DNA of 60,035 nt, filler included, from Rhizaria sp. SCN 62-66 (taxonomy: Eukaryota): NCBI GenBank assembly GCA_001724265.1. It is 5 parts of 5 records of this genome, joined end to end, with 100 filler letters (N's around TTAATTAATTAA, not from the genome) between each part and the next. Parts side by side here need not be neighbours in the genome. Positions count along the whole stretch, not along the records: positions 1 to 9,988 come from MEDY01000565.1; positions 10,089 to 20,036 come from MEDY01000566.1; positions 20,137 to 29,975 come from MEDY01000567.1; positions 30,076 to 48,414 come from MEDY01000568.1; 1 more part is not named here. The stretch is one strand, 5' to 3'. The stretch's first letter is position 1, and every line of letters starts with the position of its first letter. The translations under genes and the position numbers were made by a program. Positions 2,308 through 45,210 of this stretch are shown here, piece after piece. The notes beneath the pieces are model-generated. The model was not told where the DNA came from. It searched no databases and saw only the letters and a program-made list of their open reading frames with translations.

Positions 2308-3774
2308 ATGGACAACTCAAGCAGTCTTGGTGAAGACTCGTTTGAAGGCTCGTTCGCGTCTTTCCTTGCATCTACCCGCAAAGCTCATGACGAGTTTGAC
2401 GACAACGCACCTGCTACATCCCGAGGCGACGAGAACACACCGACCCAAACCTTGCTTAACCAGCCTCTCAAAGATGCCATCATTGCAACCGCCGGCGAGT
2501 TCACGCCATGGCCCGCCCCACACAGGCGCCACGCTGAGTCTGATCCTGTTGCCGTAGCTCCCGCCTTCCGGCTTGAGCTTTCGCGTCCCAAGCGGGCGGC
2601 TCCTAGTCCTGCCCGGCAAAAGAGCACTGGAACTATAGGAACACCGCGTCAAGGCGGCAGTACTACGCCGCATATGACTCTGCACGCGTCTGCGTCCTCC
2701 GAAAGCAGCAGTGCTTCGCAGTCGCAGCACGATTCACCCAGCAGGAACCTCTCACAGCCACACTCTCAGCACAACTCGCAGGCGGATAGCGCACCAACTC
2801 AGCGCGGCGCTGTTCAAGACGTTGTGTGGGGCACGCCGCGCGGACGCCATTTGCCGCAGCCTGCGTCACAACTGCATGAATAGCCGTATGCGATCACACG
2901 CTCGCAGTCGCAGACACCGCGTTCCTCTAGCACGGAGGTTGCAGTGTCTCAGCCCGCCACAGAAAGCGCAACGGGCGATGCTGCTGGCAGCGCGCTTGCG
3001 CTCGCAGTGCGGCGCCTCGAGGAGCTGGAGGCCGCGGCGCGCGCGCGCTCGGGCGCTCTGTCCCGCGCACTGCGCGCCAACGCAGCGGCCGAGGGCGCGC
3101 TGCAGTCGCGGCTCCGCGCCGCCGCTGCGCGCGCGCAAACGCTAGCCGCGCTGGAAGCGAGCGTTGCGGCGCTGCACGCGCGGCAAGCGGCGCTCGCGGC
3201 GGGCGCGCGGGCGGGGGCGCGCGGGGCCGCGGCCGCATCAGCTGCAAGGGCGCAGTGCGCCGCGCTGAAGGAGGACGCGGCGCGCGCGCGGCTCGCAGAG
3301 GAAGCAGTACGCGCGCACGCTGCAGCGTTGACAGCGCAGGAAACCGCGCACGAGGAAGGGCTGCGCGCAATTTTGGCGCGCCGGCGCGGCGCCGCACGGG
3401 CAGAGGAAGTGCGCCAACAGGCGCGCGAGCTGCGTGCGCGCATGGACACGAACGACCACGTCGGCGGAGGCAGCGGCGACAGTGGCAGCGTGGCCGAGCA
3501 GGAGGCTGCACAGGCCACGGCTGCGGCGGCGGCAGCTCAGGCAGAGGCGGAGGCCGTGCGGTGCGCTGCGGCGCGAGAGCGGCTGCTGCAGGCGCAGGCG
3601 CAGCGTGCGCGCGCGGAGGAGGCAGTCATCGCGGCGCGCGAAGGTGGCAGCGCCGGGCAGCGCACTGCGGCGACAGTGGCGCTGGCGCTTGCGGCGCGGG
3701 TGCGCGAGCAGACCGGCAAGTGGGCTGAGCGGCTTGATATTATCCGTGAGCGTATGCAGATGTTTCAGCACTAA
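2308..3774 (+). CDS. Hypothetical protein with disordered N-terminus and Ala-rich coiled-coil C-terminus; one in-frame TAG at 2881-2883
   Basis: ORFs 2308-2883 and 2944-3774 share a frame and the only stop between them is TAG. The sequence turns AT-rich directly after the TAA at 3772-3774. Confidence 0.65.
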
Positions 3775-4139
3775 AAATGCACGATGAGATTGAAATTAAA
3801 ATGTGTATATTGTGAATCTTGCGAGAGAACACACACAAGATTGAAATAGAAACGCGGTAGCAGACATACACTAGTTATTATGTTCTAATGAAAACAATGC
3901 ATGACAATGTTGTCTCTTGCACTGAAAGATGGACGAAGTGGTTGATGTTGTGGAACTACTGATAAGGGTTAGGTAAGCAGGTTGGTAAAAATCGCATGTT
4001 TCAATAAGAATGGAATATGATAGCAGTTTGGTATAGCAACAACAAAAAAGTCGCAAAATACAATAAATGTGACATGTGGAATGAACTCTCAACAAGAACA
4101 TTGTAGTAGTCACACGATGTGTAGCACAGATTGGAAGTC

Positions 4140-7100
4140 TTAGATAACGATGAAGCGAGCAATGAGCGTGTCCTTGGCAGCAGAGATAGTGGGCTCCTGC
4201 TTCGCTGCAGCCCTGCCCGCCGGTCCGCGTTTGACGGGCACGGTCACTTCGACGCGCGCGCCCACCTCACGCAGCGGCGCGCGTGGTGCAGCCACAAGTG
4301 CTCCCATCGCCGGCGCTGGAACGCTATCGGTGTACTCGTCCTCGAACAGGATGCCGCCCGCCAGCGCTCCGGAGGCCACGGACTTGACTCTGCCGCCGGA
4401 GGTCGACGCGGTGGCTGCGACGGCCGAAAGCAGCATGGGCGAGCTCGTCCCAAGCGGATCGGCAGGCGACTGTGGCGCTGACAGCAAGGCAGGCTGGCGC
4501 ACGGCCGCTGCGCCCCACACACCCGCGACCGCGGACACGGCGGCGGCGGCGGCGGCCACAGCCACGGCCGGCGCGTCGAAGGCCTGCACCAGCGCCACCG
4601 CGCGCTCCGGCAGCAGCGGCACAACGGGGCCGAACACAGGGCCAGTGGTGCCGCGGCCGTTGGTGGGCGACGCGCGCGCCGCCGTTGAAGAGGGCGGCGG
4701 CGGGGCGGCTAGAGAGAGCGCGAGCGCAGCGCGGAGAGTAGTCCAGCGGAAGTGCGCCTGCAGAGAGCCGACGAGTGCGGGCGCAGCGTTGATACACAGC
4801 AAGTAACGGCGCCCGCGCTGCAGCGGCGACAGCGTGGAAAATACCACGAGAGTCAGCGGCGCCACGCGCGGCAGCGGCGACGCCGAGGCGGCATCCGTCG
4901 AAGTGGCGTTGGCGTCGGCGCGGCAGCAGCGGCAGCCACCGCAGGGGCCGTAGGGCACTGCGACCAGCGCGGGCGTGGCCGGTAGCACGCCCAGCGGTGT
5001 CTGTGGCGTGCCAGGGTTAGACCGGGGAATGCGGACGGTCAATTTCATATCGTGACTGTCGCCGAAGCCGTGGCCGCTGGGAGAGTTTGTGTTCGCAGCG
5101 CTCACACTCGCACTCGCGCTGGGCGTGGAGCTGGGCGTTCTGTCGGAGGAATCCGTGCTCGTGGACAGAGACGCAGCTTGCGTCGCCATGGCGTCGGGGT
5201 CGTCAAACACAAACGCGCCGGACGCGGTCGCAGCGCCGACGACCGGCGACTCAGGCAGCGTGGGCAGCGCCGTCACGGAGGAGTCGCGCGTGGCGAGCAT
5301 CGCGGGGCGCCGCGGCGGGGTGTTGAGCGCCGCGCTGGGGTGCGTCGCGCTCGGATGCACTCCGAGCAGCGCGTGCGAGGGCGAAACCGCCTCGGCGCGC
5401 GCGGCGCCGTCGAGCTCGGTCGCGGGTGCTGGCAGAGCGGGCAGCCACGCGCTGTCACTGAAGCCGTGGCCGTGGACTGCGCTGTGCGCGTGCGTAGTTG
5501 AGGGCGGCACAGAAGGCGCAACGGGGTTGCAGCCGGTGTCCCAGCAGCAGCACTGCTCAGGGCCCGTCAACGATTCGCTGTACAGCGTCTCGCAGTCGCT
5601 CTCTGGCTTGAACATGCGGTCGCCGCGCACCGCCGCGGGAACGCCAGCAATGTACGGCTCGGCCACGACCGGCGTGCTCATCGCCACGGCCACGCGGTCC
5701 GCGCGCGCAGTGTCCGCACACGCCGGCTCCGCGGGCTCAGTTTCGGAGCGGAACAGCGGGCCCACGGCGGAGAGACCGCGCGCGAGTGCAGCGCGCAAAC
5801 GGCCCGGGGCGGCGCCCGCGGCCTCAGTGGGATCGAGCGTCACAGCGCAGTCTTCGTCGGCGTCAGCGTTGTTCCGGGCAAAGCGCGGAACACGGCACGC
5901 GGGCGCGCGTACCCAGCGTAGCGCGCCGTCGACGCCGGCGACCGTGCCGGACGCCTCGGCCACGGGCGAGGCCGCGAGCAGACAGCGGCGCGGCGCGGCG
6001 TGGCGCGGCGGCGCAGTCTGCAACACGGTGACAAGCCCGCGGACGAGCGCGCCCGACACTGCGTCGACGAGCAGCACGGAGGCGTCGTCCAGGGACCGCA
6101 CGCGCACGCGAGGAACGCTTGCCCAGTGGTGACGTGACGCGTCGGCGCCAGCGGCGATCAGCGCCGGCAGCGTTTGCGACGCGCCGTCCAGTTGCGCGTG
6201 CCGCATCCACGGCAAGAACGCAGACAAGGCGTTGGGGAGAGACCCACCAAGCAGCGACTTGCGCCGCGTCGCGTCGCCAGTCGGCGCAACCTCGTCCGCA
6301 ACCAGCCCCGTGCCGAGGAAGGCAACGGGGCCCAACGCAGGCGAAGGCGACTGACTGAGCGCAGCCGCACCGTCAGTGCCCGCTCCAGAGCCAGCGCCGG
6401 CGCCGGCGTGGCGCTGCTGCAGAAACGCCGGCGGGGCGACCATCGGCGACCCACGCATGCGGTCGGAGAACGAGTTGCCGCGGCGGTGGCGCGGCCGCGT
6501 CACCGCAGCGCCCGCCTCCGTGATCTCTATAGCGGCGGCCGCCGCAGCAGCCGCAGGGTCGAGCTCGGCGAGCGGCGGCGGAGGCGAGCTCTCGCTGCCG
6601 CCAGTCTCGGGGCCCGCGGCGGTCGAGTCGCCGCTGCTGCGGCGCAGGAAACCGGCTTGCTGCAGCGGCGGCGGCGGCGGCGGTGGTGAGGCGCCAGAGA
6701 AAGTGAAGGACCGCTGCGTGCGCAGCTCGTGCGGCGCGTCCGCGAGAGGCGTGGGCGCCTGGCCACCAACGACGCCGGGTGCGAGCGGCGTCGGGGCGGG
6801 CTCACGCTGCAACGCGGCGGCGCCAGCTAGCGGGGACGCAAACGGCGTGGCGGCGGCGGACGTGAGAGCGACGCCGGGGCCGTGATACGGCGACGCGTAG
6901 GGTGAAGAGCAGCCACCGCGCGCGCGCGCGGCGCCGCAATCGTCATCCCACAGCGGGTCGTCGGCGGGCGTCCAGTCAGGGAAAAGCCCGGTGGGCACGA
7001 CAGAGTTATTGAGACACCACACAAGGTGGCGCTGCGCAGGGTGCAGAACGGCGTCCGCCGTGAGAGGCAGCGAGGTGACCGTGGTCATCGCCGCCGCGCC

Positions 7101-9988
7101 CCACCGCGCGTTTTCCGCCGCGGCGTCGGGCGTGACAAGCGCGTCGAGTGCGAGGACGCCTGTCCGAGCACACGCGGCGAGGCCGACTGTGCGCAGCGCC
7201 AGCGGACGCGACGCGCCGACGCCCGTGGTCGACGCGGAGAGCGCGGCGCCGGGATACACGTTCGTCGCGCCGATGGAGACCGCGGAACTAGGCGTCGCCG
7301 CTGGAAGCAGACTGCCAGGCGTGGCTGGCACGGAGCCCGCCACACCGGCAGCAACAGGGCCTGGAACAGGGCCGGGCACGGGGCCCAGAGTCGGCGAGCC
7401 GATGCGGCGCGGCAGCAACGAGCGCGCGCCGAGCGTGGGGCTCTGCTGCGCGCCCGCGGGGACAAAGGATGAGGCGGTCGACAGCGCCACCGGCGTGCGT
7501 GCGGCCACCGCCGCAGAGCTCGACGCAGAGACAGATGCCTCAAACGTGAACGAGTGCGACGGCTGCGTCAGCGGCGCCTGCGCAGACTGCGCCGATTGTG
7601 CTGTGACGAGCGGAGTCGCGGGGGGCGCGCAGGGCCCGCGCGGGGAGCCCATCGGCAGCACCGCCGCTCCGCCGTTGTTACCGGACGCAGAGCTCTGCGA
7701 CTGCGGCGCGGGACCGCGGAACGGGAGCGTGGCCGATGAGCCTGGGCCAGAGACGGAGCCGCGGGGCGGGGACGAGAACAGACCGGAGCTGGAGCGGCGC
7801 ATGCCGCCGCCGCCGCCGTTGCCGCCGCCGACGGAAGGCGACATCGCGCCCCCAGCGGCAGAGCCCGCGCCCGCACTGGTGGACGCTGTCACGCCTGCGA
7901 CAACCGCGCCCGTGGGGACTGCAATCGTGAGCGCAACGCGGTCCCGCGGGCCGAGGCCGTAGCTCCACAGCGCGCGGTGGTCGTCGAGGTACAAGTCCGC
8001 AAAGGTGAGCACGAGCGCGGCAGGGTGCAGCGCCGTGAGAGACGCGAGCTGCATCTTGAGCTCGAGCACCGTGTCGCGCGGCGTCACGAGCAGGTTCGCG
8101 TCGCCGATCGGCATCCCGCGTACGGCGAGCGGGAACAGAAGCCGCGAGCCAGCGCCCGCGCCCGCAGTGCCCGCGCACAGGCGCTCGGTCACGGCCACGG
8201 CCGCGGGCTGCGACAGGCCGAGCGCGGCGAGCGAGCGCGGCGCTGCAGCAGTCTCGCTCTCGCTCTGCTCGCCGGGCAGCGGCAGCGCGCGCGCGATGGG
8301 CGTCACGTGCGGCAGCCACAGCCCTGGGTCCGCGCCGTAGCCCTCGTCAGCGGCGTCGGGAAGGGCGATGCGTGAGGCGTCCATGCTCAGCGTTGCGGGC
8401 AGTGTCGGCGGTGCGGATAGCAGCAGACGGCGGAACACTGCGCCCTCGGCCACGGCTTCGAAGTACGGTCCCTCTGGCGCTGACGCCAATGCTGCCGTCG
8501 CAGAGTCACTGGCGGTGGCACTACTGTTGTTCAGCGCGGCCGCACAGGCGCAGGCACGGCGCAGCGCGGCGAGGAGCGCGAGGTCGGCCGCAGCAGGGGC
8601 GCGCCAGTCTGCGAGCGCCACCGCGCGCACTGTGCGCTGCCCTCTGCCCTCCTCGCCCGCCGCGGCGGCGGGGGCCGAGACCGAGTACCACGCCTGAGCG
8701 GGCGCGAACAGGCGCGACTCCGCGTTGCTGTCTGCGGGCGCAGCGGCCGCGCCGGCCGCGGTAGGCGTGGACACAGGCACGGTCTCGGGGCTGCGCAGGA
8801 GCAGCAGCAGCGCGCGCTCCGGGTCGGCGTCGGCGCGCAGCGAGCCAGCCAACAGCGCCGCGCAGCGCGCCGCCCACAACGCGTGCAGCAGCGGGTTCTG
8901 GTTCAGCAGGCGCGCGATCGCAGTCTGCGCGCGCGCGACCGCAGCGCTGCCGGCGCGCACCAGCCCAGTCACCACGCCGGCCGCCGCCGCGGCGGCGGGC
9001 GACACGTTCCCCGCGGTCGCGGCCGCGAACGCGGGCAACGCGGCCTTGTTGGCGGCGTCGGCGGCGGCAGCCAGGGAGTAGACGACAAGCAGCGCAGCCG
9101 ATGCGGCGCCCGCGGCACTCAAAGCGGCCGCAGTCATGAAGCCCTTGGTCGCGCCCGGCGCGGCGGCCGCAGCCACGGCAGCACGCAGCAGCCGCGACAG
9201 CGCGGACAGCGACACGCTTGCCGACTTCGCAGTCGTCGCAGTCGCGTCTGAAGCAGCAGCAGACGCGGTGTCCGTCGCCGGTCTCGCTCTTGGTGTCGTG
9301 ACACTGTCCGGAATCAGCTCGGCGAGCGTGAGGGATACCGCGGGCGCCTGCTTGACCGGTGCAGCTCCCGGCAGCCCGCCGGCCAAGTCAACCTGCGCGT
9401 CATTCTGCACCGTGGCGACGAGCGACTCCATGCTCAGCAGCCCGCGGCCGACCGTGGCGCCGCCCTCCGCGTCCGCGCAAACGGTGGCGGCGGTGCGCGC
9501 ATCGAACGCAGTCACGGGGCCGCGCGGGCCGGCGGCCGCGGCGTGCGTGTGCGGGAACGCGGCGTGCGAACGCAGCTCCGGGGCCGCGACCAGCTCAAGG
9601 TTCAGCTCCGTCTCCGTCGCCGGCGGCGCAGTCGTGGCCGCGGCAGTGTTGCGGGAACTCGAGGGCGCGAAGACCGGCAGCGGCACGGGGGAAAACACGC
9701 GGATCGCGGGCAGCAGCGCCTCTTCGCCGTCGTCAGCGCTCGAGACGGGCGCGAGCAGCAGCGCGCTGTCGCGGCCGGTCAGTGCGGCCACCGCGGCGGC
9801 GAAAGCCGTGGCGGGCGCGTCGCGCGGCGCGGTGACGGCGGGCGCGGGCGCCAGGAGCGTCGCGGGCAGGAGGCGCAGCAGCGGCAGCGGCAGCCGCCAC
9901 GCGGGCGCGCGCTGCGCTGTGGGGGCGGCGGCGGCCGTCGAGGCGGCGGCGACTGCGGCCGCGGCGGCTGCGGCGGCCGCGGCGGCCG
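4140..9988 (-). CDS. Large Ala/Ser/Pro-rich protein with a ubiquitin-like domain, 5'-partial
   Basis: The frame is open from the contig end to TAA at 4140 (about 1950 codons). A UBL-like segment near 7925-8130 reads LLVTPRDTVLELKMQLASLTALHPAALVLTFADLYLDDHRALWSYGLGPRDRVAL. Confidence 0.75.
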
Positions 9989-10088: not shown

Positions 10089-12077
10089 CGCGGCGGCAGC
10101 GGCAGCGGCAGCGGCGGCGGCAGCGGCCGCCGCGGCAGCGGTCGCGGCGGCGCCCGGCACGGCGGGCACGTACGCGTAGGGCGCCGGCAGCCCGTGGCCG
10201 TGCGCCGGCACGCCGTGCGCGGCCACTCCATGCGCGGCGGTCGCGGCCGCGGGCACAGCCGCCGGCGCGAGAGCGTGTCCGTTGGCGGCCGCAGCGGCGG
10301 CGTTGTTACTGTCGCTGGTGCTGGGGACCTCGGCCGTGGTGCCCGACGTCGCAGTCGACAGAGATAGCAGCTGCGGCCCGCCTGCGCCGCTGCCGGCGCC
10401 TGAGAGCGGGGCGGAGGCCGTGGCTGCCGAGGCCGCGGTAGGCGACGCGGCGGCTGAGCCCGGCGCGGGCCCGTTGAAGCTGCCGCCGGCGGTGCTGTTG
10501 GTGGGGCTGGAGCCGGAGTAGCGGCCCAGCAACTCGGCCGTGGTCAGCCCGGAGAAGGTGTGCGGGGCCAGCCGCTCCCCGTCCGCGCCGGTCATCGAGA
10601 CAGCGCCGGCGCCGGAGGCGGGGCCCACAGTGACCGTAAGAACGACGCCGCCAGGGACAGTGGCGGCGGCTGCGGGCGCTTCGGTCGGGCCAGAGGCGGC
10701 GCTGGTCGCGGACGCGGAAAGGGCCGCCGCCGCCGCGGGCACAGCAGCAGCAGCAGTGCCAGCCGGGGCTGCAGCTGCGGCCGCGCCGTCGTGCGCTAGC
10801 GAGAAGCCGTCCCCGGCCCCGGGCGCCACGGCGCCGGCAGCGGACGTGCCGTTGGCGCCCGAGGCGGCGCCCGAGGCGGCGGCGCGGCGGCGCGCGCGGC
10901 GCAGCACTGCGTGGAGCGCGGCCGAGTGCTCCGGCGCCACGGACGAGGCCGAGAGCAGCCCCGCCAGCGGCGCGCTCAGCGGCGAGTCGGGCGGGGTTGC
11001 GTCCGCGGCCGCGGCCGCGGCGGCAGCGTCGGCGGCCGCGGCGGCCGCGTCGGCGGCCGCGTCCGCCGTCTGGGCCACGGTCTGCGCGGGTGCGGGCGCG
11101 GGCACAGGCAGAGGCAGCGGGACAGCGGCCGGCGCTGTGATGACGGCCGCGGACGCAGGCGCAGGCGCAGGAACGGACTCTGGCGAGGTGAAGCTGTTGC
11201 CGCTGTTGTTGGCAGCGAGGTCGGTCGCGCTCGCGCCGGCCGAGGCACCAGCGGACTGAGCCTGCGACGTGGGCTGAGACGGCGGCTGGGACTGGACGGG
11301 CGGCGGCAACGAGCTGGGCACAGTCGCCAGCGCCGGCAGCGTGCCAGCGCCAGCGCCCGCGCCAGGAAGAGCGTCGGTGCTGGGCATCTGCGGCATCGGC
11401 ATCGCGGCGCCCAGGCCCAAGCCGTGGCCGTGACCGTGGCCGAGACCGAAGCCTAGGCCCGCGGTGGCGTCGCCGCCGGGGAACGGGTAGACCGGAACCG
11501 CCGCAGGTAGGGGGAACGCAGACCCGTCAGTCACCCCAGCGCCATGGCCGCTGCCATGGCCGTTGGCGTGGCCGCTGAGCGAGGCGAAGGCGCGGTGCGA
11601 CTGCGTTGGCGTGGGGTCGGCCGAGTCCGAGTCCGAGTTGGAGGGCATCGACAGCGTGGGGAAGCCCCCTAGCAGGTGTAGCTGAGCGCCGGCGGCGGAG
11701 CCGGGGGCGGCGCCGGGAGCCGACTGGGGCAGGGCAGCCTTGCCGAAGGGGAAGCCGTGGCCATGCATGTGACCACCGTGCCCGTGACCATGGCCATGGG
11801 CAGTGAGCGGGAGGGGGGTGAGGCCGAGGTCCATGGCGGGGAGCCCGGGGAGCGAGACGGCGGTGGCGCCGGGGGGGAAGCCCATCGCGTCCCCTGCGGC
11901 CGCGGCGGAGGCGCCCCCGAGCATGAGGGCCGCATCCGAGGGCGGGGGCGTGAGGCCGGAGGGCACCGAGGCGGACGAGGCCGAGTGGGAGTGGGGCATG
12001 GCGCCGGAGACGGAGCCGGGGGCGCCGGGGGGCGCGGGCGCGGGGGGGGCGGACCAGGAGACGCCGGCGTCGGCCAT
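10089..12077 (-). CDS. Hypothetical low-complexity Ala/Gly/Pro-rich protein, 3'-partial
   Basis: ATG at 12077 with an in-frame TGA just upstream. Open for about 660 codons to the contig end, with consistent GC-rich codon usage and HG dipeptide repeats. No recognisable domain. Confidence 0.65.
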
Positions 12078-14153: not shown

Positions 14154-14192
<39 letters not shown>

Positions 14193-31696: not shown

Positions 31697-32228
31697 GACA
31701 TCATGCGCCGTGGGCTGCTGGCGCTGACGTCTGTAGACGTGTCACAATGCAGACTGCGTCTCCCGTCACTACGCTGTAAAGATTTGAAGTTGAGCCATGA
31801 AGCGGGACAAATGAGGACGGAAAATAATCATATGCGTTAACGTCTATCGTCTTTGTGTGAATGTTATATAGTATGGTTAACTACATCTGTGTCTATCCAT
31901 AGGGGCTTCGGTGTGTGTAATTGGTACTGGCAGATCGAGCCGTTCCTGAGCCTGTCTGGGCGATGATAGCGAAACGGCTTGAAGATGAAATCCCGAGACC
32001 GTGTGCGGTATCATAGAAATATAATGATATGTGGTCACTTGATTTGATGCATAGACTCTCATTTCAATTTTACTTTGCTTTAATTCATCAAGTTGACGGA
32101 CACCTCAAGGTGTATCAAACAGATTTAGTCATCAGTACTGCCGATTCCTCTCAGCACTTTCGCACACCCCTTGTTCAGCCTCTAGCGCACACCCCTGTCG
32201 CTTTCGCGGCACCTGCGCCCTCACCGTA

Positions 32229-34416: not shown

Positions 34417-34974
34417 ATGCTCGCCCGTCAGATCAAGTCCGCGACTACGGTCGTCTCCCGCGCCGCTCGCGCGCTGTCGACCAAGGCCGCCAACGCGCCT
34501 TTCGTCGCCACCGACATCCTGAACCTGGACTCGCGCCTCACCGAGGAGGAGCGCATGGTGCGCGACACCGCCAACGCCTTCGCGCAACAGGAGCTCATGC
34601 CCATCGTTACCGAGTGGGCGCGCAAGGAGACGTTCGACCGTAAGATCATGGAGAAGTTCGGCGAGGTCGGTCTCCTCGGCGCCACGATCGAGGGCTACGG
34701 CTGCCCCGGCGTGTCCACCACCGCGTACGGCCTCATTGCGCGCGAGGTTGAGCGTGTCGACTCGGGCTTCCGCTCCGCCATGTCCGTCCAGTCTTCGCTC
34801 GTTATGTTCCCCATCTACAACTACGCGTCCGAGGCGATCAAGTCTAAGTACCTCCCCGAGCTGGCTAAGGGCAAGCTCGTTGGCGCGTTCGGCCTCACCG
34901 AGCCCAACCACGGCTCCAACCCCTCCGGCATGGAGACCCGCGCCCGCAAGGACGGCGATTCCTACATCCTCACC

Positions 34975-35009
<35 letters not shown>

Positions 35010-35793
35010 GGACGTGTTTGTCGTCTGGGCCAAGGATGATGAGGGAGTGATCTCGGGTTTCGTGCTCGAGCGCGGCATGGCCGGCCTTACCACCCCCAAG
35101 ATCGAGGGTACGTTTGCTTTAACAACAATCAATATCCACGTGTATTTTATTTAAATTGAACTCTTTTTCTTTGTATCTCATTGACATCGCATTATCTAAC
35201 CCTTTTTTACCTCTTTGTCTTCTTTTTTTTTCTTCACTGCAGGCAAGCTGTCCCTGCGCTCGTCTGTGACGGGTCAGATCATCATGGACGAGGTCCGTGT
35301 CCCCGCCGGCAACAAGCTTAACGTCTCCGGTCTCCGCGGCCCCTTCTCCTGCCTCAACTCTGCCCGCCTCGGCATCGCGTGGGGCGTCCTCGGCGCCGCC
35401 GAGTTCTGCATGGAGTACGCCAAGAACTACACGCTTGACCGCATCCAGTTCGGCCGCCCGCTCGCGGCGACGCAGCTGGTGCAGTTCAAGCTCGCCGACA
35501 TGGGCACCGAGATTGCGCTCGCGCAGCAGGCCGTGCTGCAGGTCTCCCAGCTCAAGGACCAGGGGCTCGCCAACACCGACATGGTTTCGCTCGTCAAGCG
35601 CAACAACTGCGTCAAGTCGCTCAACATCGCCCGTGTCGCGCGTGACATGCTCGGCGGCAACGGTATCGTCGATGAGTTCCACGTCATGCGCCACGCCGTG
35701 AACCTCGAGACCGTCAACACGTACGAGGGCACCGCCGACATCCACGCGCTCATCCTCGGTCGCGCCATCACCGGCATCCAGGCCTTCCAGTAA
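34417..35793 (+). CDS. GCDH: Mitochondrial glutaryl-CoA dehydrogenase; exons 34417-35107, 35243-35793
   Basis: Basic presequence, then [58 protein letters not shown] and [29 protein letters not shown]. Stop is TAA. Confidence 0.96.
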
Positions 35794-36326
35794 GCAGGTA
35801 TATCGCTATCCGCGAAAATAGCAACGGCGGTGCGACGTGCACATGCCGATGGGGAAGGGAAAGGGGTTGGGGAACTTATTTTATCTATTCGCTGGATGTG
35901 ACTGGCTGACTTTTAACTCTCGGTTGTCTCAAGCCAGTGCTTTGATCTTCTGTCGGAACAATGACAACACGCGTGGTCGGCATCTTGGATAAGACCGACT
36001 GCACTCAATTCAATAAAGCATCGCATACTTTGATCACAATGAGCTTGTGTGCTCTTTAAGCACCGTATATCTTGCATACCAGCTCTGAACTGCTTTTTGC
36101 TCGTTCAGAAGTCAAGCTTCAGAAGTCGGCTAACGATCGAGTCAATTTCATATGGAAGTCCTCGCAGAATCCGTTATCTAAACTGCTTCCGAGATATGAA
36201 ATCGCACATATATGTTTATCTATTTAATTTAAATAGCACGCTCAAAAACGTTTTATTTTCCTGTCAATCATACGTTTTTCGAACCGTCCTTCAGAGTCAG
36301 GTAACGACTCTTCGTTGATAATCACT

Positions 36327-37502
36327 ATGTCCTCGTCCCCCGCGGACGCCGCGTCCGCCGACGCCCATTGGTTTGGCGCGCATGCGTCCCACGCGATGCT
36401 GCACGGCCCCGACCTTGACAGCAATCTGCGCGTGCCCACCCCGCCGACGCCCGAGACGCTGCCAGTATCGAGCGCTTGGCCGGACGATTTTGCAGCGACA
36501 ACATCTGCCGACGGCACCACGGCGCGCCGCGTGTCTTTCCCGCCGTCTTCGCCCTCCGACGCGCTCGCCGCCGAGCTTGGCGCCGCGCCGGCAGCCGTTC
36601 CCGCGGCCGACCGCTCTAAGGACGAGGAAGCCGCGCTCCGCCTGGCCGCGCGGCAGCAACTCGCCGCCGCGCTCAACGACGGGTTATACTTCTCGCAGGC
36701 AACCGCTGGCATTCCGCGCGGCGTCTACCTGCTCCCCCCGTCGGCCTCCGCAGCCGCGGCCGCCAACGCCGCCTCTCTGGCGGGCGGATCGGGTCCCGGA
36801 CACAGCCACCGCGCTGCCGCAGGCACTGGCCATGGCTCTGGCTCTGGCACTGGCTCTGGTGCAATAACTGCGACGCATGCGGGGGTGTTCGCGATGGGCT
36901 CGACATACAACAACCGTCACCTGCTGGCCGCTGCTGGCGGCGGCGCTGCGGCGGGCCCCGCCACGGGCGCCAGCTCGCCCTGGGCCGTCACCACCGCAGG
37001 CGGCCTCGTCCACGGCGGCGGCAGCTCGATTAACGGCAACAACACCACAACTGGTAACAAGCGGTCTCAGTCGCCGCAGCGCGCCGCGAGCGCCCGCGCG
37101 GCCGTCGTAGCCGCGGGCGATGCTCTGCTTGCGCGGCCTTTCCCGCTGCGCTCGCCCGCGCTCGGCCCACCCACAGCACCCCCGTCAGCCGAGGTTTGCG
37201 CGTTCTCCGCCGCCGCCGCGGCCTCTGTGCGCGCCGCCGCGCTCGAGCGCCCGCGCACGCAGACACAGAGCAGTGTCAGCGGCCGCCACCGCCCGCGCTC
37301 GCGATCCCGGTCGCCGTCGCCATCGTCGTCCCCACGCAAGGCCGCTGCTGCCGCCGCCGCCGCTGCCGCCGCCGCCGCTGCAGAGGTTGAGGCGCAGGCG
37401 CAGGCGCAGGCGTTGTCAGCCGCGGCAGCGTCGGGGCTGCTGGCCGGTTTGGGGGCACACGCGCTCGCTGGCCACGTGTCCACCGCAGCGTCCACTGCGC
37501 AT

Positions 37503-37585
<83 letters not shown>

Positions 37586-40225
37586 CCGGCAGCAGCAGCG
37601 CATGGCGGCAACAGCGCCGAATTTGGCGAAGGCAGTGGGTCGCAGCCGCACACTGCGAGTAGCGCCCGCGCCGCCCGACGCTCTCGCGGCGCCAACAGCG
37701 GCGGCGGGGCTGCGGTGCAGAGTTGTGATGCGTGGACGCAGACGGCCCCGCAAGTGCCTGCCGCGCTCGGGACGGTCTCCGCGCTGCTCTCCCGCGTGTG
37801 CGACGCCACGGGCGCTTTGCACGCCCGCCTACTCGCGCTGCAAAGCACTGCCGCGCGGTCCGTCTCCCGCGGCCAGCTCGAGGGCGCGCTTGCTGCGCGG
37901 TTCCCTTCCCGCGACGCACTTGCCCTCGCGCTCGCCCGGCTTGTCCGCGCGGTCCGCACCGAGCACGACCACGACCACGACGGCGTCGCCGCGGCCGGGG
38001 CCGGCGCCGGCGCGTGCGCGACGAAGGCCGACCTCCTCCGCGCAGCGGCCTCGCGCGGCGGCAAGCGACAGGTGCGCGCTCTGCGCCGGGCGCTGATTGA
38101 AGTCAAGCGCCTCGTCGCCAGGGCCATCACTGGCGCCGGAGCGGGGGACCCGGCCGCGCTCGCATCTGCGGTCGCAGCGGCAGCTGTAAACACGGTCACA
38201 GCGGGCGGCAGCGCAAGTGGCAGCGCCGCGGGGGGGCAGGCCGCTGCGGCTGCGGGCTCGTCTGCACCCGGTTTGAGCGCTAGTGCTGCGATTGACGCGG
38301 CAGCAGCGCGTGGCAGCGACCCTGCGCACGGCGACGCGAGCGACCTCGAGCTGCTCAAGGCGCTTGTCCGCATTGGACTGAACCCGCGCGAGATCGCGTC
38401 GCTGGAGCTCGGCGTGCCTGGCGCCGGCAGCTGGGGCTCCCGCGGCGCGGGCGACGGCGACGAGGACGAGGACGAGGCCGAGCTTCGCGCCGCGGTCGAC
38501 GCCGCGCGCGCGGGCCGCGGCTCGGGCGACGGCGCCGGCGGGCCCGGCAGCCCGCACGGGGACGGGCGCCGCACGACGCTGCTGCAGCGGCTGTCGGCGC
38601 GCGGCGGCACGCTCGGCATACGCGGCGGGCCCAGCAGCGCGGCGGGGTCGCGGCGGCCCAGCGGTGCCGGACTGGGCAGTCCGCACGCCGGCGGCGGCGG
38701 CGGCGGCGGCTGGGGGCACGATGGATACGGCTCTATCAGCGCCGCCGCGCTCCAGGGCCCCGGCGGCGGCGGCGCGGCGGCGGGCGCTGCTGGCGCGGGC
38801 GCGGCGGCCGCCGGCAGCAGTGCTGATTACGCGGCGCTGCTGGCCCGCGTTGAGCGTGCTGAGACGGCGCTGGAGCTGTATCTGCGCTCGGCGCGGCTCG
38901 TGCAGACGCAGCAGGGCAAGCCGTTACTCGTCCGCGGTGGGCCAGACGCGTCCGGCACCGGTGGTGGCAAATCGACATCAGGGGCGCGGGCGGGGCGCGC
39001 GTCCCGCGACTCCACCTTGTTGTCGGCACTGACCCGCACCGGCACTGGCGCTGGCGCGGGGGCGGGCAACGCTCCCGCAAGTGGCAACACAGCCGGTCTG
39101 GTGAACGAGGGCGGGCTGTGGTACGCCGACCCCACGGGCGCGGTCGGGCAAACTCTCGCAGCGTTGATGCAGCTCATGCGGCGCCGCGCTGGCGCAGATA
39201 TGGCGCGTGTCGAAGCCGCGCTGGCCGTCGCACGCGAAGCGCACGCGCGGGACGCGGCGCGAGCAGGCGGGCTCGCTGCGCGCGTGCGCGGCGACCGCGC
39301 GGCGCTGGCCGCCGCGGTGCGCGCGCTGGCCACGTCGGAGCGCAGTCTCCAGGCGCTGGAGAAGCGGATGGGCGACATCGCGGGCGGGCCCGGCGCGGCC
39401 GCGACCGGCGACGCTATGGTGGCTGAGGCCGCGCGGCGCCACGACGCGCTGGCGGGTGAAGTCGAGGCACTGCTCGCGGAGGCACGCGGGCGTGCAGATG
39501 CGCAGCGGGCGCTGCTGCAGTCGCTGGGCGGCTCCGGCCGCGGGCTTGCTGACGCCGCTGTGCAGCTGCATGCGAAGCTCTCCGCCGTTGCGGGGCGCGC
39601 GAGGGACCTTGCCGCGGCTGCGGGCGACGAGGCCGCGCGCGACCGTGCGGAGACCGAGGCGCGGCTGGCTGCGCTGGAGCGCGCTGTCGCCGCCGCTGGC
39701 CGTGGCGCGCGCGAGGCGTCCGAGGGCGTTGGGTCTGCGGGGCAACGCGTTGACGCACTCGCGCTCGCGGTTGGCATGCAGCACGGTGGCGCGGGCGAAA
39801 CCTCGCTCGCCGCGCTCGGCCCTGGTGGTGTCGCGGGCGACGGCCGCTTGGGCGGCGGCGTCGGCGCGCTGCCGTGGGCCGCGGCGCTCGTGAGCGCGGT
39901 CAAGGAGGTTGAGGCGCTCGACACCGCGCGGCTTGCAGGCGCAATGGCTTCCGTGCCCGGTGCCGGGCCCGCTGGTGGGCCCATGCCGCTGACGCGCACG
40001 TAGGCCGCCACCACGGCCGCCGGGTGGAGCGCCGGGCCTGCTGCAGCCGGAAGTGCGCGCGGGAACGCGGGCCCAGGTGTCCACGCAGGCACGGATGCTG
40101 TAATGGGTGCGGGTCAGCAAGGCCAAGAACAGACACAAGGCCAGGGTCAGGGTTATAGCAGGCCCGGGACTGCTGGACCTGGCGCGACTGTGGGCTCCGT
40201 GATGAGGCGCTCGCGTATGTTGTAA
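36327..40225 (+). CDS. Large Ala/Gly-rich protein with a C-terminal coiled coil; frame changes within the (AAC)28 tract; in-frame TAG at 40001-40003
   Basis: The frame from ATG 36327 is coding-like up to the microsatellite. After it the CAA frame (ORF 37715-40003) is coding-like and continues 73 codons past the TAG to TAA at 40223-40225. Confidence 0.6.
37503..37586. repeat. Perfect (AAC)28 microsatellite
   Basis: 84 nt of uninterrupted AAC, counted from the sequence. Confidence 0.97.
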
Positions 40226-40704
40226 AGACACTGCGGCGCCGATCGATGATTCACATTTCTTAAATATTGTCCGTGATATTGAATACATGTCGCTTTATTA
40301 TACTGTTTCGACGATATGAGCAAGGTGTCAATCCAACTGTACATCCGTGTTTGACAGCGTTAATCTTTTTAGCAATGCAACTCGACTGAGGCTTGGGGGC
40401 ATGGGAAACAATATTTGTTATTTTCTTGGCTTAGATTAATAAATTAAAGGAACTATCACATATAAAGCTGCATATTTTCCTTTATTCTACATAAATTAAA
40501 ATTTATTTTTTATTTACGTATGTTTTTGAAAACTATAGTCTTGAGTTACATAGTCATACTAGTTGTTCATACCGCAAGCCTTGGCAAAAGTGATTACGCA
40601 TGTTTGCTTAATGTATTGTTAAATAAATGCTAAAAGCTAAATAAAGTCGAGGATAATAAAATAAAAACAGTGTAAGATGAGTGAACAATGATGATGATGT
40701 CAAA

Positions 40705-43700
40705 TCACTTCGTTTGATCCGCCGCATAGTGTGCCATGACAGCTTTACGGGCATCGAGCCACGCCGCACGGCCGTTCTCACGCCAAAGCGTCCATGCACG
40801 TTGTGCTTCAGCGGCCTGTCGCTCTGCACCGTCACGCAGTGCCTTGACCGTGCGCGTTTTGAGGTCTTCGTCGCGCGCATCGTACGCGTCCACTTCAAGT
40901 GCGTGCGCCAGGGCGGTCGCGCCGTCATGGTCGCACCGCGCTGCCGCCAGAGCGCGGCCAGCAGTCGCATCAACGCTCCACCCACATGTGGCGTCTGCGT
41001 TTGTGGCAGGGGCTGTTGTGTCGCACGCCCGTGGAAGACAGCGGCAAGCGCCGGCGAAAGCGGGTGCGGGAGCCAGCCAGCCCGCGGCAACAGACGGCGA
41101 CCGCGCCTCCGAAGCGCGCTCCCGGCGCTGCTCGGTCGTTGCGTCATCAGCTATCGCGTCAAACACTCTGCCATCAAGCAGGGCCGTTAGCAGCGCGGGC
41201 TCACGGTACGCCGCTGCGGCAGCCAGCATCGTGCGCCCATGCTCGTTGGCCGCCGCGGGGCCCGCAGCATGCAGCAGTGGCGCAGGAGGCACTGCCAGCG
41301 GCGACCACGGCGCTGTTGGAAGCTCAGTGGTCGATAAGACTGGCGTAATCGCATCTGAGACCGGCGCGGGCAGTGCGGTCTCACCAGCAGCAAAACTGCG
41401 TGGGACAATGCGCCGGCCCAAAAGATCGGTCCAGGTGCCGTCAGCCCAAAAGCATGACTCCTCGCTCGCAGTGGCGCAAGACTTTGGTGTGGCGTCTGCG
41501 GGCAGCGCCACGGTCCAATTCGCGTCAACAGCGAGGCCCCAAAGCGCACGGTCCACAACAGCGGCCGCGATGGCGTGCAGTGTACGCTTGCGTGCGGGTG
41601 GGACGATGAAGCTCTCGTGTCCGCCTGCTAATGCAACCGCCGCAAGCAACGAGTTTGCATCTCCATCCTGGAGCGTGACTGGTGCTGCGGGGAAACGCCA
41701 CACGCGGTAATCGCTGCCACTCTGAGCCCACGTACTGCTGATGCCGACAAGTGCAGACTCAGCAGTCAGTGCAATGGAGTCTTCAGTTGCAAGCAGTGCC
41801 GCGAGCAGAGGCTCGTCCTGGTTAAGCACCGCAATGTGCATCGGGGGCAATCCGGGTCCAAAGGAGCGCCACTAATCCACAGTCGTGTCCGTCAACACCA
41901 TGCCCACCGTCAGCGCTGCCGTTGGCAACAGTGCGCGCCGCTCTTGTTCCGTTAATGGGCTCGCACCATTTGCGGGTACTGGCGCTGCAAGATGATTCTC
42001 GAGCAGCTCGCGCATGCACTGCAGAGGTTCGGTGTTTAGAGTCTGGTGATCTCTACTCGAGGTGCCGTTTTCACCATCGCGCACATGATTACGACGCGAC
42101 TTGGCGTAGAGCACGGCAAATGTCTCGCCGTCGCCGCACACATGCCGCGCGTACAGCCCCTTGGCACGCGCCGCACGCAGTGCGCGCAGTGCACTGCCAT
42201 CGGCCCCCGGCACAGCGCATGCGCGCGCCACATTCGCATGCATTTGCGCAATCGCGCCGGGTGACAGTGCGAAGCCGTCCTGCGCCGCCAGCGCATTCAT
42301 CAGCACCGAGCTCGCGCTGGTGGCTGGCGCAACCGCGAGCGTTCCCTTGTGCGTGGCCACCGAGATGGTCGCGCGCGCAACGTCTTGTGCAAGGAGCACC
42401 AGACCGAAAGAGCCCGCAGCGGCTGCCAGATGCAGCGGGGCGCGCTGATCGAGGCCCGCGGTGGTTGAGAGCAGCGCTGCACTCGCGCCGGACCAGGCCC
42501 CCGCTGCTGTCAGTGGTGACGTGCTAAGGCGCTGGTTACGGAACCAGGCATCACCCACGTCCACGGGAGACCAGGATGAGAGGGGCGCGCCCGTCAACAG
42601 AGCAACCAGTGCACAGCGCTCCAGCGCGGCCGTCGAAGCCACCGTCGCAGTAGAGCCTTCCTCCCCGCGCCATAGCGCGTACACATGCTGAGACAGTGCA
42701 GCACCCGCAGTCGACTCAGCCTCAGTTACAGAGCCGGTCTGCGCAAGCGCGGCGGCGGCGAGCAACTCTCCGGCCAGTGCCTCATCGGCGTGGTAACACA
42801 GCCGGTGCAGCAGCGTCAGTCCGCCCGCTGCGCGCGCCATGAGTCCGCCGGGCTGTGCACAGTCGCGTTGACCGTCGCGAGCGCAGTGCAGAGTCTCCGC
42901 GGCCGTGGCGGCGGCGATGGCGGCGAGCGTGGCGGCCGCGGGCGCCTGTGCAACGTTGTCGCAGGGCGCGCGGCACCGCGGACCGGGGGCGCTGCCGGAG
43001 CTGGTGCCCAGGCTCAGCAATGGCGTGCGGCCGCGCGCGCAGCAGTGCGACAGCGTGGGAAACAACGCTGCACTGGGGCCGCCGTGGGCACACACTGCAC
43101 GCACCGCTGGCAGCGCTGCACAGGCTGCGGGCGCCACAGGCTCAGCGCAACATAAAAGCAGCGGGGCAAGTGCACGGAGCGCACCGACGCGGCAGGCTGC
43201 AGCGGCAGCGTGCAAGGGCGTCGCGCCCGCAAAGAACGATGTCAGCCCCGTGGGCAGCGGCGCGCGGGGCGCGGCGGCTAAATTCGCCATGGCACTGTCG
43301 TTGATAAGCGGGTCACAAGAGCGCGGGGGTGGCAGCAGAGCTGGGGGCCACCAGAGCATGCGCCTCGCAGTCGCAGCGCTGGTTTCTGGATATAAGCTGG
43401 CGGTGAGAGTGACGGGGCGGGCGATGAGCGCCAGCAGCGCGGCAGCAAGCGCGAGGCGGCCGCGCGCAACAGCCGCAGCGACAATACACTCGCCATCTGC
43501 CACTGGAAGCGCGAACGACACCGGCGGGCGCGATGGATACTGCGGCCGCTGCGACTGCAACGGGTTTGAGGGCGACGTGTGGCCATCTTGCCAAAGCGCG
43601 GCTGTGGCCCCAGAGCGCAGCAGCAGCGCAACAAGGCGCACACAGCGGCGCTCTTTGCGCGACAACGGCAAGGTACGCAGCCATGCCACAGTGGCCGCAG

Positions 43701-45210
43701 TATGTGAGTGGACATTTGGGCGCGATTGACACAGCAAGACATCGGTGGCGCCGGGGGGCCACAAAGTCGAGGACGACGTCGTATCGCACGGACAGCGCAC
43801 TGTAGCACTTGCTGTTGCAGGCGCGGTAGTGCTACAAGTGCTTGCAATGTTGGCCACATGTGCGGCAACTGCGGCTGCAGCCGTGGCAGCAGCTGTGGCT
43901 TTGCCAGTCGCAGATGCGCACCGACGCCTCGACTGCGGAGCAGAGCCCAGCGGTGGGAGGAGCGACTGCAGCAACCACGGATCACTGTTGTCGCCATCGT
44001 CGTCCCCGTCGTTGTTGTCGCCGCCGTGATCGTGGTCGTCGTATGCTTCGTCGTCGGTCTCAGCGCCAGCGTCAACCCACGCATCGCCAGCGTTGATCTC
44101 GCGTGGACTCTAGTCAGAATATGCCGTTTGTGCCAAAAGTGCGGCGGCAACGGAGCCCATCGCTTTCTCGTCAGCGCCGTTGATTTCGCTCTCAGCAACA
44201 GAAGATGCAAGGTTCCCCGCCGCAGACACTGGCGGCGCAGCGCAAGCGCGTGTGTCGGTGCGCAACGCGCGTAGCGGAGCCAGACACGCGCCCAGCGCAG
44301 TCGTCCACTCGCTCGCTGCTGACAGCGGCAGCGGCGCTGCAGAGCTCAGGACGCCGGATTCACTCTCAGCATGTGCGGTGGAGTGTGCAGGAGCTGAGGA
44401 CGTCACGGACAACTGCGCCGCCACAATCTGTGTTCCCGTAGCCTCCGTCGTCGTCATAGCAGCGCCGATGTGGCTGGCGCTGGCGTGGCAGCTGTCTTCG
44501 CAGGGTCGCATATGCACGGGATACGCAGTTACAGCGACCGCGGCCTCGGGCGCCGTGCCAGGGCCTGCGAGGCGCATGTCAGGGTCCGCGCCTAGCGCCA
44601 ACAGCGCCGCCGCGGTGCGCGCGCGGCCGGCAAAGCAGGCGGTGTAGAGCGGTGACCGCGCGGGAGAGATGAGCAGGTCCGTGCAGAGAGGGTAAAACAG
44701 GTACTTGCCGCTCGATACAGACGTCGACTAGCTCCTCTGTGCCTGGCCGTGAGACAATGAGACGGAAGCGCGCACAAGCAACGGGTGCGGGACGCCGTCG
44801 ACGCGCGCGCCGCCCTCCTTGACGAGGACTGTGAGCGCTGCCGAGGCGGCGCGTTCGTGCGGAATGGCAGCCCAAGTTGACAGCACGCAGAGGTCGGAGC
44901 ACGTCTCCACGGCATCGGGGTCGGCGCCCGCCGCAAGCATCGCGCGCAGCAGCGTCAACAGCTGCGACACAGTCTCTTCGCGCCCAGCATTCAATGAGTC
45001 AACAGCAGTGGCGTCAAAAATGGCGTCTGACGCGGAGTGCGGATGCGAACATGATCGAGCAAGCAGCATCAGCGGGGACGTGTCCGTAGCCGCTGAGGCG
45101 GGAATGTAGTTCGGGTCAGCGCCGCGAAAAAGCAAGTCCGCCGCAAGGGATAGGTCGCCTAAAGCGCACGCCGCGTGAAACGCCCTGGACAAGGCAGCAA
45201 CGTCGTCCAT
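40705..45210 (-). CDS. Ankyrin-repeat protein (about 1500 aa) with three in-frame TAGs (44728-44730, 44110-44112, 41872-41874)
   Basis: Four track ORFs (44728-45294, 44110-44601, 41872-43974, 40705-41850) share one frame and are separated only by TAG. Ankyrin-like motifs are spread along the whole length (AFHAACALGDLSLAADLLFRGADPN, SPLYTACFAGRARTAAALLALGADPD, TPLHAAAAAC, APLHLAAAAG, PPMHIAVLNQD). Ends in TGA. Confidence 0.78.

Follow-up and report, generated by a model that had tools for sequence, protein, structure and literature searches.

Rare in-frame UAG codons in orphan genes of an uncultured GC-rich eukaryote and their possible translation

Described codes that uncouple UAG from UAA

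To our knowledge, UAG has been uncoupled from UAA in few eukaryotic lineages, and all described cases are finished, with the codon already common. In Condylostoma, stop codons are ambiguous and context-dependent. In the rhizarian exLh, UAG encodes leucine, and the cited part of the report counts 384 in-frame UAGs in 71 genes, many of them at hyperconserved leucines and with proteasome genes included; in Iotanema spirale, UAG encodes glutamine, and in both organisms only UAG interrupts the frames and genes end on UAA (most) or UGA (PMC5304391). In phyllopharyngean ciliates, UAG encodes leucine or glutamine, and the cited section reports internal UAG in 78–91% of genes and suppressor tRNAs (PMC11687900). 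As far as the cited passages describe them, Blastocrithidia nonstop uses UAA both for glutamate and as a stop (PMC12153298), and Amoebophrya sp. has ambiguous, context-dependent stop codons (PMC6394959).

Here we analyzed a window (the whole stretch of DNA under study) of 60,035 nucleotides, filler included, from Rhizaria sp. SCN 62-66 (GCA_001724265.1), an uncultured GC-rich sewage-sludge eukaryote (GC 46–77% per 2-kb window). The window consists of short metagenome contigs in five N-separated pieces. Its oddness led to its selection in a very large scan, so that rare coincidences are enriched. The fifth piece has a lower GC3 and might belong to another organism.

As in exLh and Iotanema, only UAG interrupts frames in the window, the unambiguous gene ends are mostly UAA or otherwise UGA, and the source is an uncultured protist known from sequence. 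Unlike in the part of the exLh report cited above, TAG makes up 6 of 13,830 codons here and occurs in no conserved gene, PSMB5 included. The phyllopharyngeans, in what the cited section covers, share with the window the uncoupling of UAG from UAA, here a proposed one, the preference for UAA as terminator and the discovery in metagenome assemblies, but here only about 4 of 20 genes carry an internal TAG. As in Blastocrithidia, Amoebophrya and Condylostoma, one codon may serve as both sense and stop; in those organisms, within the passages cited, in-frame stops are abundant and usually involve more than one codon, whereas here UAG alone is concerned and is rare. Our searches of the literature for such a code in activated sludge, or in non-ciliate metagenome-assembled genomes of eukaryotes, turned up no described case.

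Six in-frame TAGs, their reading frames and their frequency

The first-pass annotation had reported six TAGs interrupting otherwise continuous frames, and all six were found with their strands: 2881–2883, 33332–33334 and 40001–40003 on the plus strand, and 41872–41874, 44110–44112 and 44728–44730 on the minus strand. They are confined to two of the five pieces (1–9988 and 30076–48414), as had been described. Directly 3′ of the six TAGs stand the bases C, T, G, T, A and T, with no common context. We compared contig 4 (30076–48414), the only part covered by this comparison, with independent DNA assemblies from other samples and years (X2/X3, whose two identical tables were counted once, and X4). 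No difference was present in the X2/X3 contigs spanning the TAG at 33332 (32914–34816), that at 40001 (37602–41600) and that at 44728 (44544–45688), nor in the X4 contig spanning 41872 (41309–42009); among the listed contig pieces, none bridges 44110. Because four of the five contig-4 TAGs are unchanged in independent assemblies, they are not assembly errors. Strain differences over these 18 kb comprise four listed indels against about eight isolated base differences (our own count). In polyA-RNA contigs, where bins without RNA cover were excluded as evidence, none of the eight listed pieces bridges a TAG; the polyA metatranscriptomes that contain this organism come from activated sludge, in the study of X4 and X5.

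Four of the TAGs are robust and lie in two genes. The coiled-coil orphan gene (2308–3774, plus strand) starts with ATG at 2308, carries the TAG at 2881 as codon 192 of 488 and ends on TAA at 3772–3774. Its two halves score best in one frame under a codon model (+37.1 and +34.6 nats), the 296 codons 3′ of the TAG preferring this frame and strand by 34.6 nats. Local GC around the TAG is 57–73%, with no AT-rich island, and the drop in GC coincides with the TAA rather than the TAG. No Pfam family matched this gene.

The ankyrin-like orphan gene (40705–45210, minus strand) has 1,501 codons from ATG at 45210 to TGA at 40705–40707, and the TAGs at 44728, 44110 and 41872 are its codons 161, 367 and 1113; that at 44110 is robust in sequence. 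The frame contains these three TAGs and no TAA or TGA, compared with 9 TAA and 52 TGA in the two other frames. All four segments delimited by the TAGs have their highest score in this one frame, with margins of 24–122 nats, and the coding signal per codon is 0.16 nats before the first TAG and 0.12–0.17 after it. Sub-threshold Pfam matches to ankyrin at residues 10–35 and 185–211 flank the first TAG. A search of a 1,200-residue stretch against 1.84 billion representative proteins gave five matches: two are weak ankyrin matches (40–42% identity) and three are fragments of the gene itself, each beginning or ending at a TAG; no protein or orthologue among these representatives crosses a TAG site of this stretch. 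Gene callers split the genes of this organism at TAG, and this gene is in the database only as TAG-bounded fragments. Two polyA-RNA contigs lie inside the gene (42210–42490 and 42977–43550), and the single strain difference in its coding sequence, 3′ of two TAGs, is synonymous; both are weak hints of expression. Neither the coiled-coil nor the ankyrin-like gene contains a frameshift. The TAGs are real, four of the five on contig 4 recur in independent assemblies, and in these two genes the sequence behind them is coding in frame.

The claim that coding continues past every TAG holds by frame scores for these four and is weaker for the other two. A low-complexity orphan ORF (32594–33550, plus strand) carries the TAG at 33332, with the next stop, TGA, at 33548–33550. 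An alanine-rich orphan ORF (37505–40225, plus strand) carries the TAG at 40001, with the next stop, TAA, at 40223–40225; an upstream part (36237–37499) lies in a different frame across an (AAC)n repeat. The repeat at 37337–37601 is unreliable, and the reading frame shifts there. The tails behind 33332 and 40001 are 71 and 73 codons long, lengths with chance probabilities of ~0.18 and ~0.38 as estimated from off-frame stop rates. Under the codon model, the upstream part of the low-complexity ORF scores +30.3 nats and its tail −7.1, and the corresponding values for the alanine-rich ORF are +53.0 and +4.0. GC3 is lower in both tails. The two extensions could be due to chance and both TAGs could be ordinary stops. 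The first-pass annotation had also stated that composition shifts only at the following TAA or TGA. This was borne out in the coiled-coil gene and at 33332 and 40001, where the GC-to-AT change-points lie at +154 and +215 nt, beside the following TGA and TAA (7 nt before the TAA in the alanine-rich ORF), but the latter two tails carry no clear codon signal. In ten control genes with TAA or TGA ends, the change-points range from −87 to +82 nt. We regard the TAG at 33332 as ambiguous between an internal codon and a true stop, and that at 40001 as ambiguous but leaning toward an internal codon.

One further TAG (49825–49827, minus strand) closes an 848-codon MACPF ORF, with a TAA 23 codons further on. 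It is possibly a genuine TAG terminator and thus a counter-example: the 23-codon tail does not look coding under the codon model, and the change-point lies 138 nt before the TAG, with weak contrast. A 59-nt GT..AG intron beginning at this TAG, read by eye, is conceivable, as is a short real extension of the protein. Like those at 33332 and 40001, this end is a candidate TAG terminator and a candidate for dual use of the codon as sense and stop; under dual use, TAGs inside genes and a possible TAG end in MACPF would be compatible. Coding-like frames ending on TAG at 31225 (plus strand) and 52544 (minus strand) were rejected both as gene ends and as sense codons, the AT-rich sequence 3′ of each being read as intronic (SSXT and MACPF).

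Twenty coding segments with 13,830 codons in total contain six TAG as in-frame stops, no TAA and no TGA; internal TAA or TGA as frequent as internal TAG, which the first-pass annotation had named as refuting, was not seen. Position-specific composition predicts 138 TAGs, ~23 times the number observed, and the six sit in genes that hold 17% of this expectation. TAG accounts for 0.04% of codons and was seen only in fast-evolving orphan genes. As had been noted at first pass, highly conserved genes are free of it: the homology-supported genes (CYP40, PMCA exons, PSMB5, GCDH, two MACPF genes and PUB-A20-AN1), 4,663 codons in all, contain none, for which P is ~0.03 by our own arithmetic if TAGs were spread by composition. 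Widespread in-frame UAG at conserved positions, as in established UAG-sense codes, where genes carry several each and conserved ones are included, was not found.

None of the approximately 12 unambiguous gene ends is TAG; those at 33332, 40001 and MACPF 49825 are ambiguous. TAA predominates as terminator despite a GC3 of 0.8–0.9. Among eight genes previously listed as ending on TAA or TGA, the ends of CYP40 (TAA), the PMCA region (TAA), PSMB5 (TGA), GCDH (TAA) and PUB-A20-AN1 (TAA) were recovered, and SSXT probably ends on TGA at 32406; the UBL and RPL8 genes were not found. A tRNA scan of the window gave no tRNA gene, Rfam gave no match, and no eRF1 was met in the Pfam-scanned parts.

Possible translation of UAG weighed against other explanations

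Taken together, a code in which UAG is sense is favored in part by these results: the interruptions are real and the sequence behind them is coding in two genes, but a settled reassignment is unsupported at 6 of 13,830 codons and 0 of 4,663 in conserved genes. We give about even odds that UAG serves as a rare, translated sense codon. On this reading, UAG would be decoded in a minimum of two genes (coiled-coil and ankyrin-like) and probably in two more. The ribosome would pass the UAG, add an amino acid and run on to UAA or UGA, most likely by means of a CUA-anticodon tRNA or efficient near-cognate decoding and with a release factor that recognizes UAG poorly. This would be a nuclear code variant with UAG uncoupled from UAA, and the reassignment may be young, inefficient or still ambiguous, which fits with the codon being very rare and found only in fast-evolving orphan genes. 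Translation through the TAGs, a mechanism involving tRNA and eRF1 and a stage of reassignment are what we infer from these data. More tentatively, and with doubt, we suggest an early or ambiguous stage in which a suppressor tRNA competes with a weakened release factor, so that UAG would be tolerated only in orphan genes that evolve fast and are weakly expressed, conserved genes would be purged of it, and it might still terminate near 3′ ends. If UAG is indeed translated yet nearly unused, the organism would represent a natural intermediate of code change, and codon capture could be tested against an ambiguous intermediate in a living system.

Under the standard code, the coiled-coil and ankyrin-like genes could instead be young pseudogenes or truncated alleles, with the ORFs at 33332, 40001 and MACPF ending on TAG, with somewhat GC-rich 3′ ends; we consider this possible but rather unlikely. 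Nonsense alleles would fit the avoidance of TAG in frame (6 against 138), its absence from conserved genes and the location of three of the six TAGs in one orphan gene; such clustering would be expected if that gene were decaying and counts against translation. TAG is also the commonest nonsense outcome for such codon usage, with a share of 0.56–0.64 of the possible single-base nonsense changes. Random single-base nonsense would then give TAG in four of four cases with P = 0.10–0.17 and in six of six with P = 0.03–0.07, so that the first-pass argument that six TAGs are not expected from random nonsense is overstated: the outcome is only mildly unlikely given the codon content, and the restriction to TAG is in part due to codon usage rich in CAG and TGG. 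Three TAG ends would give an unremarkable stop usage, no coding signal marks the tails behind 33332 and 40001, and the samples are nearly identical in sequence, so that shared TAGs say little about age. On the other hand, the four lesions in the two genes come with no frameshift and no TAA or TGA in 1,989 codons, although indels are common among strains. Since the TAG share is only 0.56–0.64 and frameshifts are competing lesions, as the strain indels indicate, neutral decay should not give TAG alone. The coding signal after the first ankyrin-like TAG is no weaker than before it, and in both robust genes only TAG was found in an unbroken frame, not the mixed lesions and fading coding signal of pseudogenes. 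Two interrupted genes among ~20 in 60 kb would be a high rate for a compact genome, and the change-points at 33332 and 40001 fall outside the range of the ten control ends. Should the TAGs be nonsense alleles, the finding would be an ordinary one, with the caution that nonsense in GC3-rich genes is mostly TAG.

Removal of the TAGs from RNA with short, GC-rich, in-frame introns whose 3′ ends lie at or close to them, or their change through U-to-C editing, seems improbable to us. A TAG can serve as an intron acceptor, inspection by eye allows GT...TAG spans of 33–72 nt, each divisible by three, at every site, and CTGAC stands just 5′ of the TAGs at 40001 and 44110. However, the reference intron in GCDH (35108–35242, plus strand; GTACGT...CTGCAG) is 135 nt long and AT-rich, three gaps in PMCA are AT-rich too, and MACPF has introns of 73 and 57 nt (by eye) and an RNA joint at 30169–30502 defines one of 332 nt. 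Recognized introns are thus AT-rich (13–40% GC in 30-nt windows) and 57–332 nt long, whereas the six TAGs lie in 30-nt windows of 47–90% GC. Neither composition nor length places the TAGs in recognizable introns, the concern raised at first pass. The candidate spans are GC-rich, shorter than the known introns and have poor 5′ sites, the probability that four such sites would all have lengths divisible by three is about 1 in 81, and no joint falls at a TAG among the 15 listed of 144 RNA joints. We know of no nuclear U-to-C editing of such a kind, which counts against the editing variant. Gene-specific programmed UAG readthrough giving extended isoforms under the standard code is likewise a reading to which we give little credence. 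The TAGs are few, and those at 33332 and 40001 are followed by another stop after 71–73 codons, an arrangement that fits a C-terminal extension. However, three sites within the ankyrin-like gene, beginning with codon 161 of its 1,501, would at usual efficiencies leave almost no full-length product, and the six TAGs share no 3′ context. The bases after them match no readthrough context known to us. That assembly or sequencing errors produced the pattern, or that the contigs mix several organisms, is very improbable: the short metagenome contigs, the unreliable repeat with its frame change and the lower GC3 of the fifth piece would suit this, but four of the five contig-4 TAGs are identical in other samples and years, and every error would have had to yield TAG.

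The source organism

Judged by its PMCA matches, the source belongs to a lineage without a named sequenced relative: named proteins are at most 45% identical in a protein search, and unnamed metagenome proteins 61–72%. PMCA relatives at 63–68% lie on contigs of 204–284 kb, and a 41-kb contig of the organism itself is present in public assemblies. A PMCA exon gave no match in prokaryote genome contigs. From the GC of 46–77%, the introns of 57–332 nt and the multi-gene contigs, we infer that it is not a ciliate. Named matches of CYP40 are at most 69% identical over the cyclophilin domain and ~53% or less over the full length. PSMB5 gets nearly the same score with the proteasome chains of yeast, human, plants and trypanosomatids, and a protein atlas returned only generic proteasome clusters for it. 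A six-frame Pfam search of 20137–22200, 30076–32600 and 47000–48414 added only a weak SSXT match and ribosomal protein P2. Named matches of GCDH are at most 62% identical over most of the protein, and its exons reach up to 79% against homologues. A metagenome scan with GCDH exon 1 gave, among the matches listed, at least 80 loci with 57–70% identity. In the 25 loci inspected, just a few bases separate the two exon matches and the intron is missing here, and these loci are probably bacterial. GCDH relatives at 71–79% identity exist as proteins.

Coding continuity across the TAG codons

All six in-frame TAGs reported by the first-pass annotation were confirmed, at 2881, 33332 and 40001 on the plus strand and at 41872, 44110 and 44728 on the minus strand. 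The strongest case is an ankyrin-like gene that runs from ATG 45210 to TGA 40705 (minus strand; 1,501 codons). TAG occupies codons 161, 367 and 1113, and neither TAA nor TGA occurs in frame; the other two frames together contain 9 TAA and 52 TGA. By arithmetic from this off-frame rate, the probability that the 1,338 codons past the first TAG are free of TAA and TGA by chance is of the order of 1e-12. Under a codon-usage model trained on the confident genes of the window, the best-scoring frame was the same for all four of its segments, by margins of 24 to 122 nats, and the coding score per codon was equal past the first TAG (0.12-0.17 nats) and before it (0.16 nats). Weak, sub-threshold ankyrin matches flank this TAG on both sides. 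The second solid case is a coiled-coil gene (2308-3774, plus strand) with 191 codons before TAG 2881 and 296 after; the same frame and strand scored best on both sides (+37.1 and +34.6 nats), and the sharp fall in GC comes only with the terminal TAA.

The proposal that coding continues through the TAGs therefore stood for the four TAGs of these two genes, on frame scores, and was weaker for TAGs 33332 and 40001, whose tails do not score clearly as coding (-7.1 and +4.0 nats, respectively). The frame stays open for 71 codons past TAG 33332 and 73 codons past TAG 40001; computed from off-frame stop rates, the chance of this in GC-rich sequence is roughly 0.18 and 0.38. Third-position GC in both tails is below that of the upstream part. 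The best GC-to-AT change-points lie 154 nt past TAG 33332 and 215 nt past TAG 40001, adjoining the next TGA/TAA, whereas those of ten control genes ending in TAA or TGA lie between -87 and +82 nt; this point favours the first-pass claim that composition shifts at the next TGA/TAA and not at the TAG. We take the observation of a coding frame that runs on through TAG as genuine in four cases and as plausible in these two.

The orphan frame with TAG 40001 begins at 37505 without a plausible start of its own, and the frame switches from an ORF at 36237-37499 across an (AAC)n run of ~28 repeats (37505-37590). Because independent contigs break or stop matching at 37337-37601, the join there may be a mis-assembly or a hidden intron.

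Independent DNA, introns and polyA-RNA

Logan contigs from four runs were compared with contig 4, TAG 2881 lying on contig 1 outside this comparison. X2 and X3, DNA runs that date from other years, yielded identical tables and were counted as one. Their contigs showed no differences over 32914-34816 (TAG 33332), 37602-41600 (TAG 40001) and 44544-45688 (TAG 44728), and a 2025 run (X4) matched 41309-42009, which spans TAG 41872, without change. TAG 44110 was bridged by no piece among those listed, and the table of differences for contig 4 has no row at a TAG. The four TAGs so covered are not artefacts.

Introns of this organism are readily visible as AT-rich islands with GT..AG borders. They include one of 135 nt in the glutaryl-CoA dehydrogenase (GCDH) gene, three AT-rich gaps in the ATPase gene, and two at the 5' end of the first MACPF gene (~52558-52486, 73 nt; 52374-52318, 57 nt), drawn by eye from borders and frame continuity. 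A further intron of 332 nt (30170-30501, minus strand; CT..AC on the plus strand) is removed in a spliced contig of the polyA-RNA run (X5; joint 30169 to 30502), so this run contains mature mRNA; this RNA contig comes from a gene at the start of contig 4 and, at a depth of 34, gives the strongest RNA signal of that whole contig. None of the six TAGs has an AT-rich intron-like island (30-nt windows, 47-90% GC). By eye one can trace short GC-rich stretches from a GT to the TAG; each would need a length divisible by three, and they do not look like this organism's introns. The TAGs are thus not within recognisable introns. Two further frames that look coding reach a TAG, at 31225 and at 52544; these were set aside, since the AT-rich sequence that follows was read as introns.

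X5 cover is not proof of spliced message, because one contig (34867-35229) includes 122 nt of the GCDH intron. Within the ankyrin-like gene, X5 pieces cover 42210-42490 and 42977-43550. The RNA is not decisive for the TAGs, since none of the eight pieces listed crosses one and none of the 15 joints listed (of 144) removes one.

TAG frequency, gene ends and competing explanations

The 13,830 codons of 20 coding segments include six in-frame TAGs and no TAA or TGA, where position-specific base composition predicts ~138 TAGs if unconstrained. The four TAG-bearing genes account for 17% of this expectation; homology-supported genes, with ~45% of it, contain no TAG in 4,663 codons (P ~0.03). A settled UAG-sense code was thus not borne out. 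By contrast, the rhizarian exLh has 71 genes with 384 in-frame UAGs between them, many at hyperconserved leucines and above all in proteasome genes (PMC5304391), and internal UAG occurs in 78-91% of phyllopharyngean ciliate genes (PMC11687900), against four genes here. No described UAG-sense lineage shows the codon at such low frequency, and the window therefore does not show a mature reassignment of these kinds.

Gene ends had been listed as TAA or TGA only, and every unambiguous one agrees: TAA for CYP40, the coiled-coil gene, the 1,948-codon gene, the ATPase region (both candidate ends), GCDH, PUB-A20-AN1, the second MACPF gene and the gene at 59133-58152; TGA for PSMB5, the ankyrin-like gene and, probably, SSXT. 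TAA dominates (~9 of 12), so the zero for TAG is weak evidence. The list omitted the first MACPF gene, whose 848-codon frame closes at TAG 49825-49827 (minus strand); the 23 codons to the next TAA are not coding-like, and this end is a possible counter-example, although a 59-nt terminal intron starting at the TAG, drawn by eye, is conceivable. TAA prevails at gene ends despite a coding GC3 of up to 0.8-0.9; some tens of bases from the stop, GC is down to ~0.4.

The best single explanation, to which we give about an even chance, is that the organism translates UAG, but uses it very sparingly and in fast-evolving orphan genes only; such a reassignment would be young, inefficient or ambiguous. 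The main rival, which we consider less likely, keeps the standard code: two dispensable genes would carry TAG nonsense alleles, and the other TAGs would be ordinary stops. Of the single-base changes that create a stop in these CAG-, GAG- and TGG-rich genes, 56-64% give TAG, so that P is 0.03-0.07 for six of six and 0.10-0.17 for four of four; the argument that six TAGs are unexpected from random nonsense mutation is accordingly less meaningful than claimed. However, the ankyrin-like and coiled-coil genes contain no frameshift, TAA or TGA across 1,989 codons, and this absence of other lesions, together with the equal coding score past the first ankyrin-like TAG, weighs against plain decay. Strains differ over 18 kb by 4 listed indels versus ~8 isolated base differences, excluding clustered differences from other organisms' homologues. 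With frameshifts counted as disabling events, at indel-to-substitution ratios that we assumed, four TAGs in a row become improbable, by estimate of the order of 1e-3.

Removal or editing of the TAGs at the RNA level has little likelihood, given six TAGs without an AT-rich island and drawable spans unlike real introns, and programmed readthrough about as little. An artefact is close to negligible, TAGs 33332, 40001 and 44728 (X2/X3) and 41872 (X4) being identical in independent contigs.

Gene content and relatives

The contigs span 1-9988, 10089-20036, 20137-29975, 30076-48414 and 48515-60035, with N spacers between, and GC per 2 kb ranges from 0.46 to 0.77. The source organism is a eukaryote. 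Encoded are a cyclophilin-40-type protein (CYP40), an intron-split P-type Ca-ATPase (PMCA), PSMB5, GCDH (one intron), a PUB-A20-AN1 zinc-finger protein, ribosomal protein P2, two MACPF proteins and very long stop-free alanine/glutamine-rich orphan frames (1,948 and 2,186 codons). Three giant frames, these two among them, at 4142-9986 (minus), 10089-12083 (minus) and 13477-20035 (plus), comprise 1,948, 665 and 2,186 codons; they are Ala-, Gln- and Gly-rich, with GC3 of 0.83-0.86 and long CAG/GCN repeats, lack stops of any kind and extend off their contigs.

The two MACPF (perforin-like) genes adjoin in divergent orientation (49825-57495); their N-terminal 387 residues are 31% identical and the long C-terminal parts unrelated. 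The first apparently has two extra 5' exons (52318-52970, minus strand), one with a signal-peptide-like start (MRMRWELPVAILFVGALSV...). Directly downstream of it, an inverted repeat (48721-49369; adjoining arms of 98 and 54 nt, 94% complementary, spacer ~350 nt) may be a foldback or MITE-like element.

The same DNA was found in bioreactor, wastewater and activated-sludge metagenomes; part of the window is present in 10 of the 12 runs listed, from six studies. The nearest relatives of CYP40 (72% identity), GCDH (79%) and PMCA (61-72%) are metagenome sequences, and named organisms are far more distant (PMCA <=45%, GCDH <=62%). Some of the PMCA relatives (among proteins P0252-P0256) sit on contigs of 204-284 kb. 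Their ATPases are each predicted as one protein of ~1,100 residues, suggesting that they have fewer introns than the window's gene. The latter (minus strand) apparently ends at TAA 23369; its frame (23370-23789) overlaps the start of a 489-codon ORF (22159-23626, minus strand) that extends to TAA 22161 and is probably a distinct gene.
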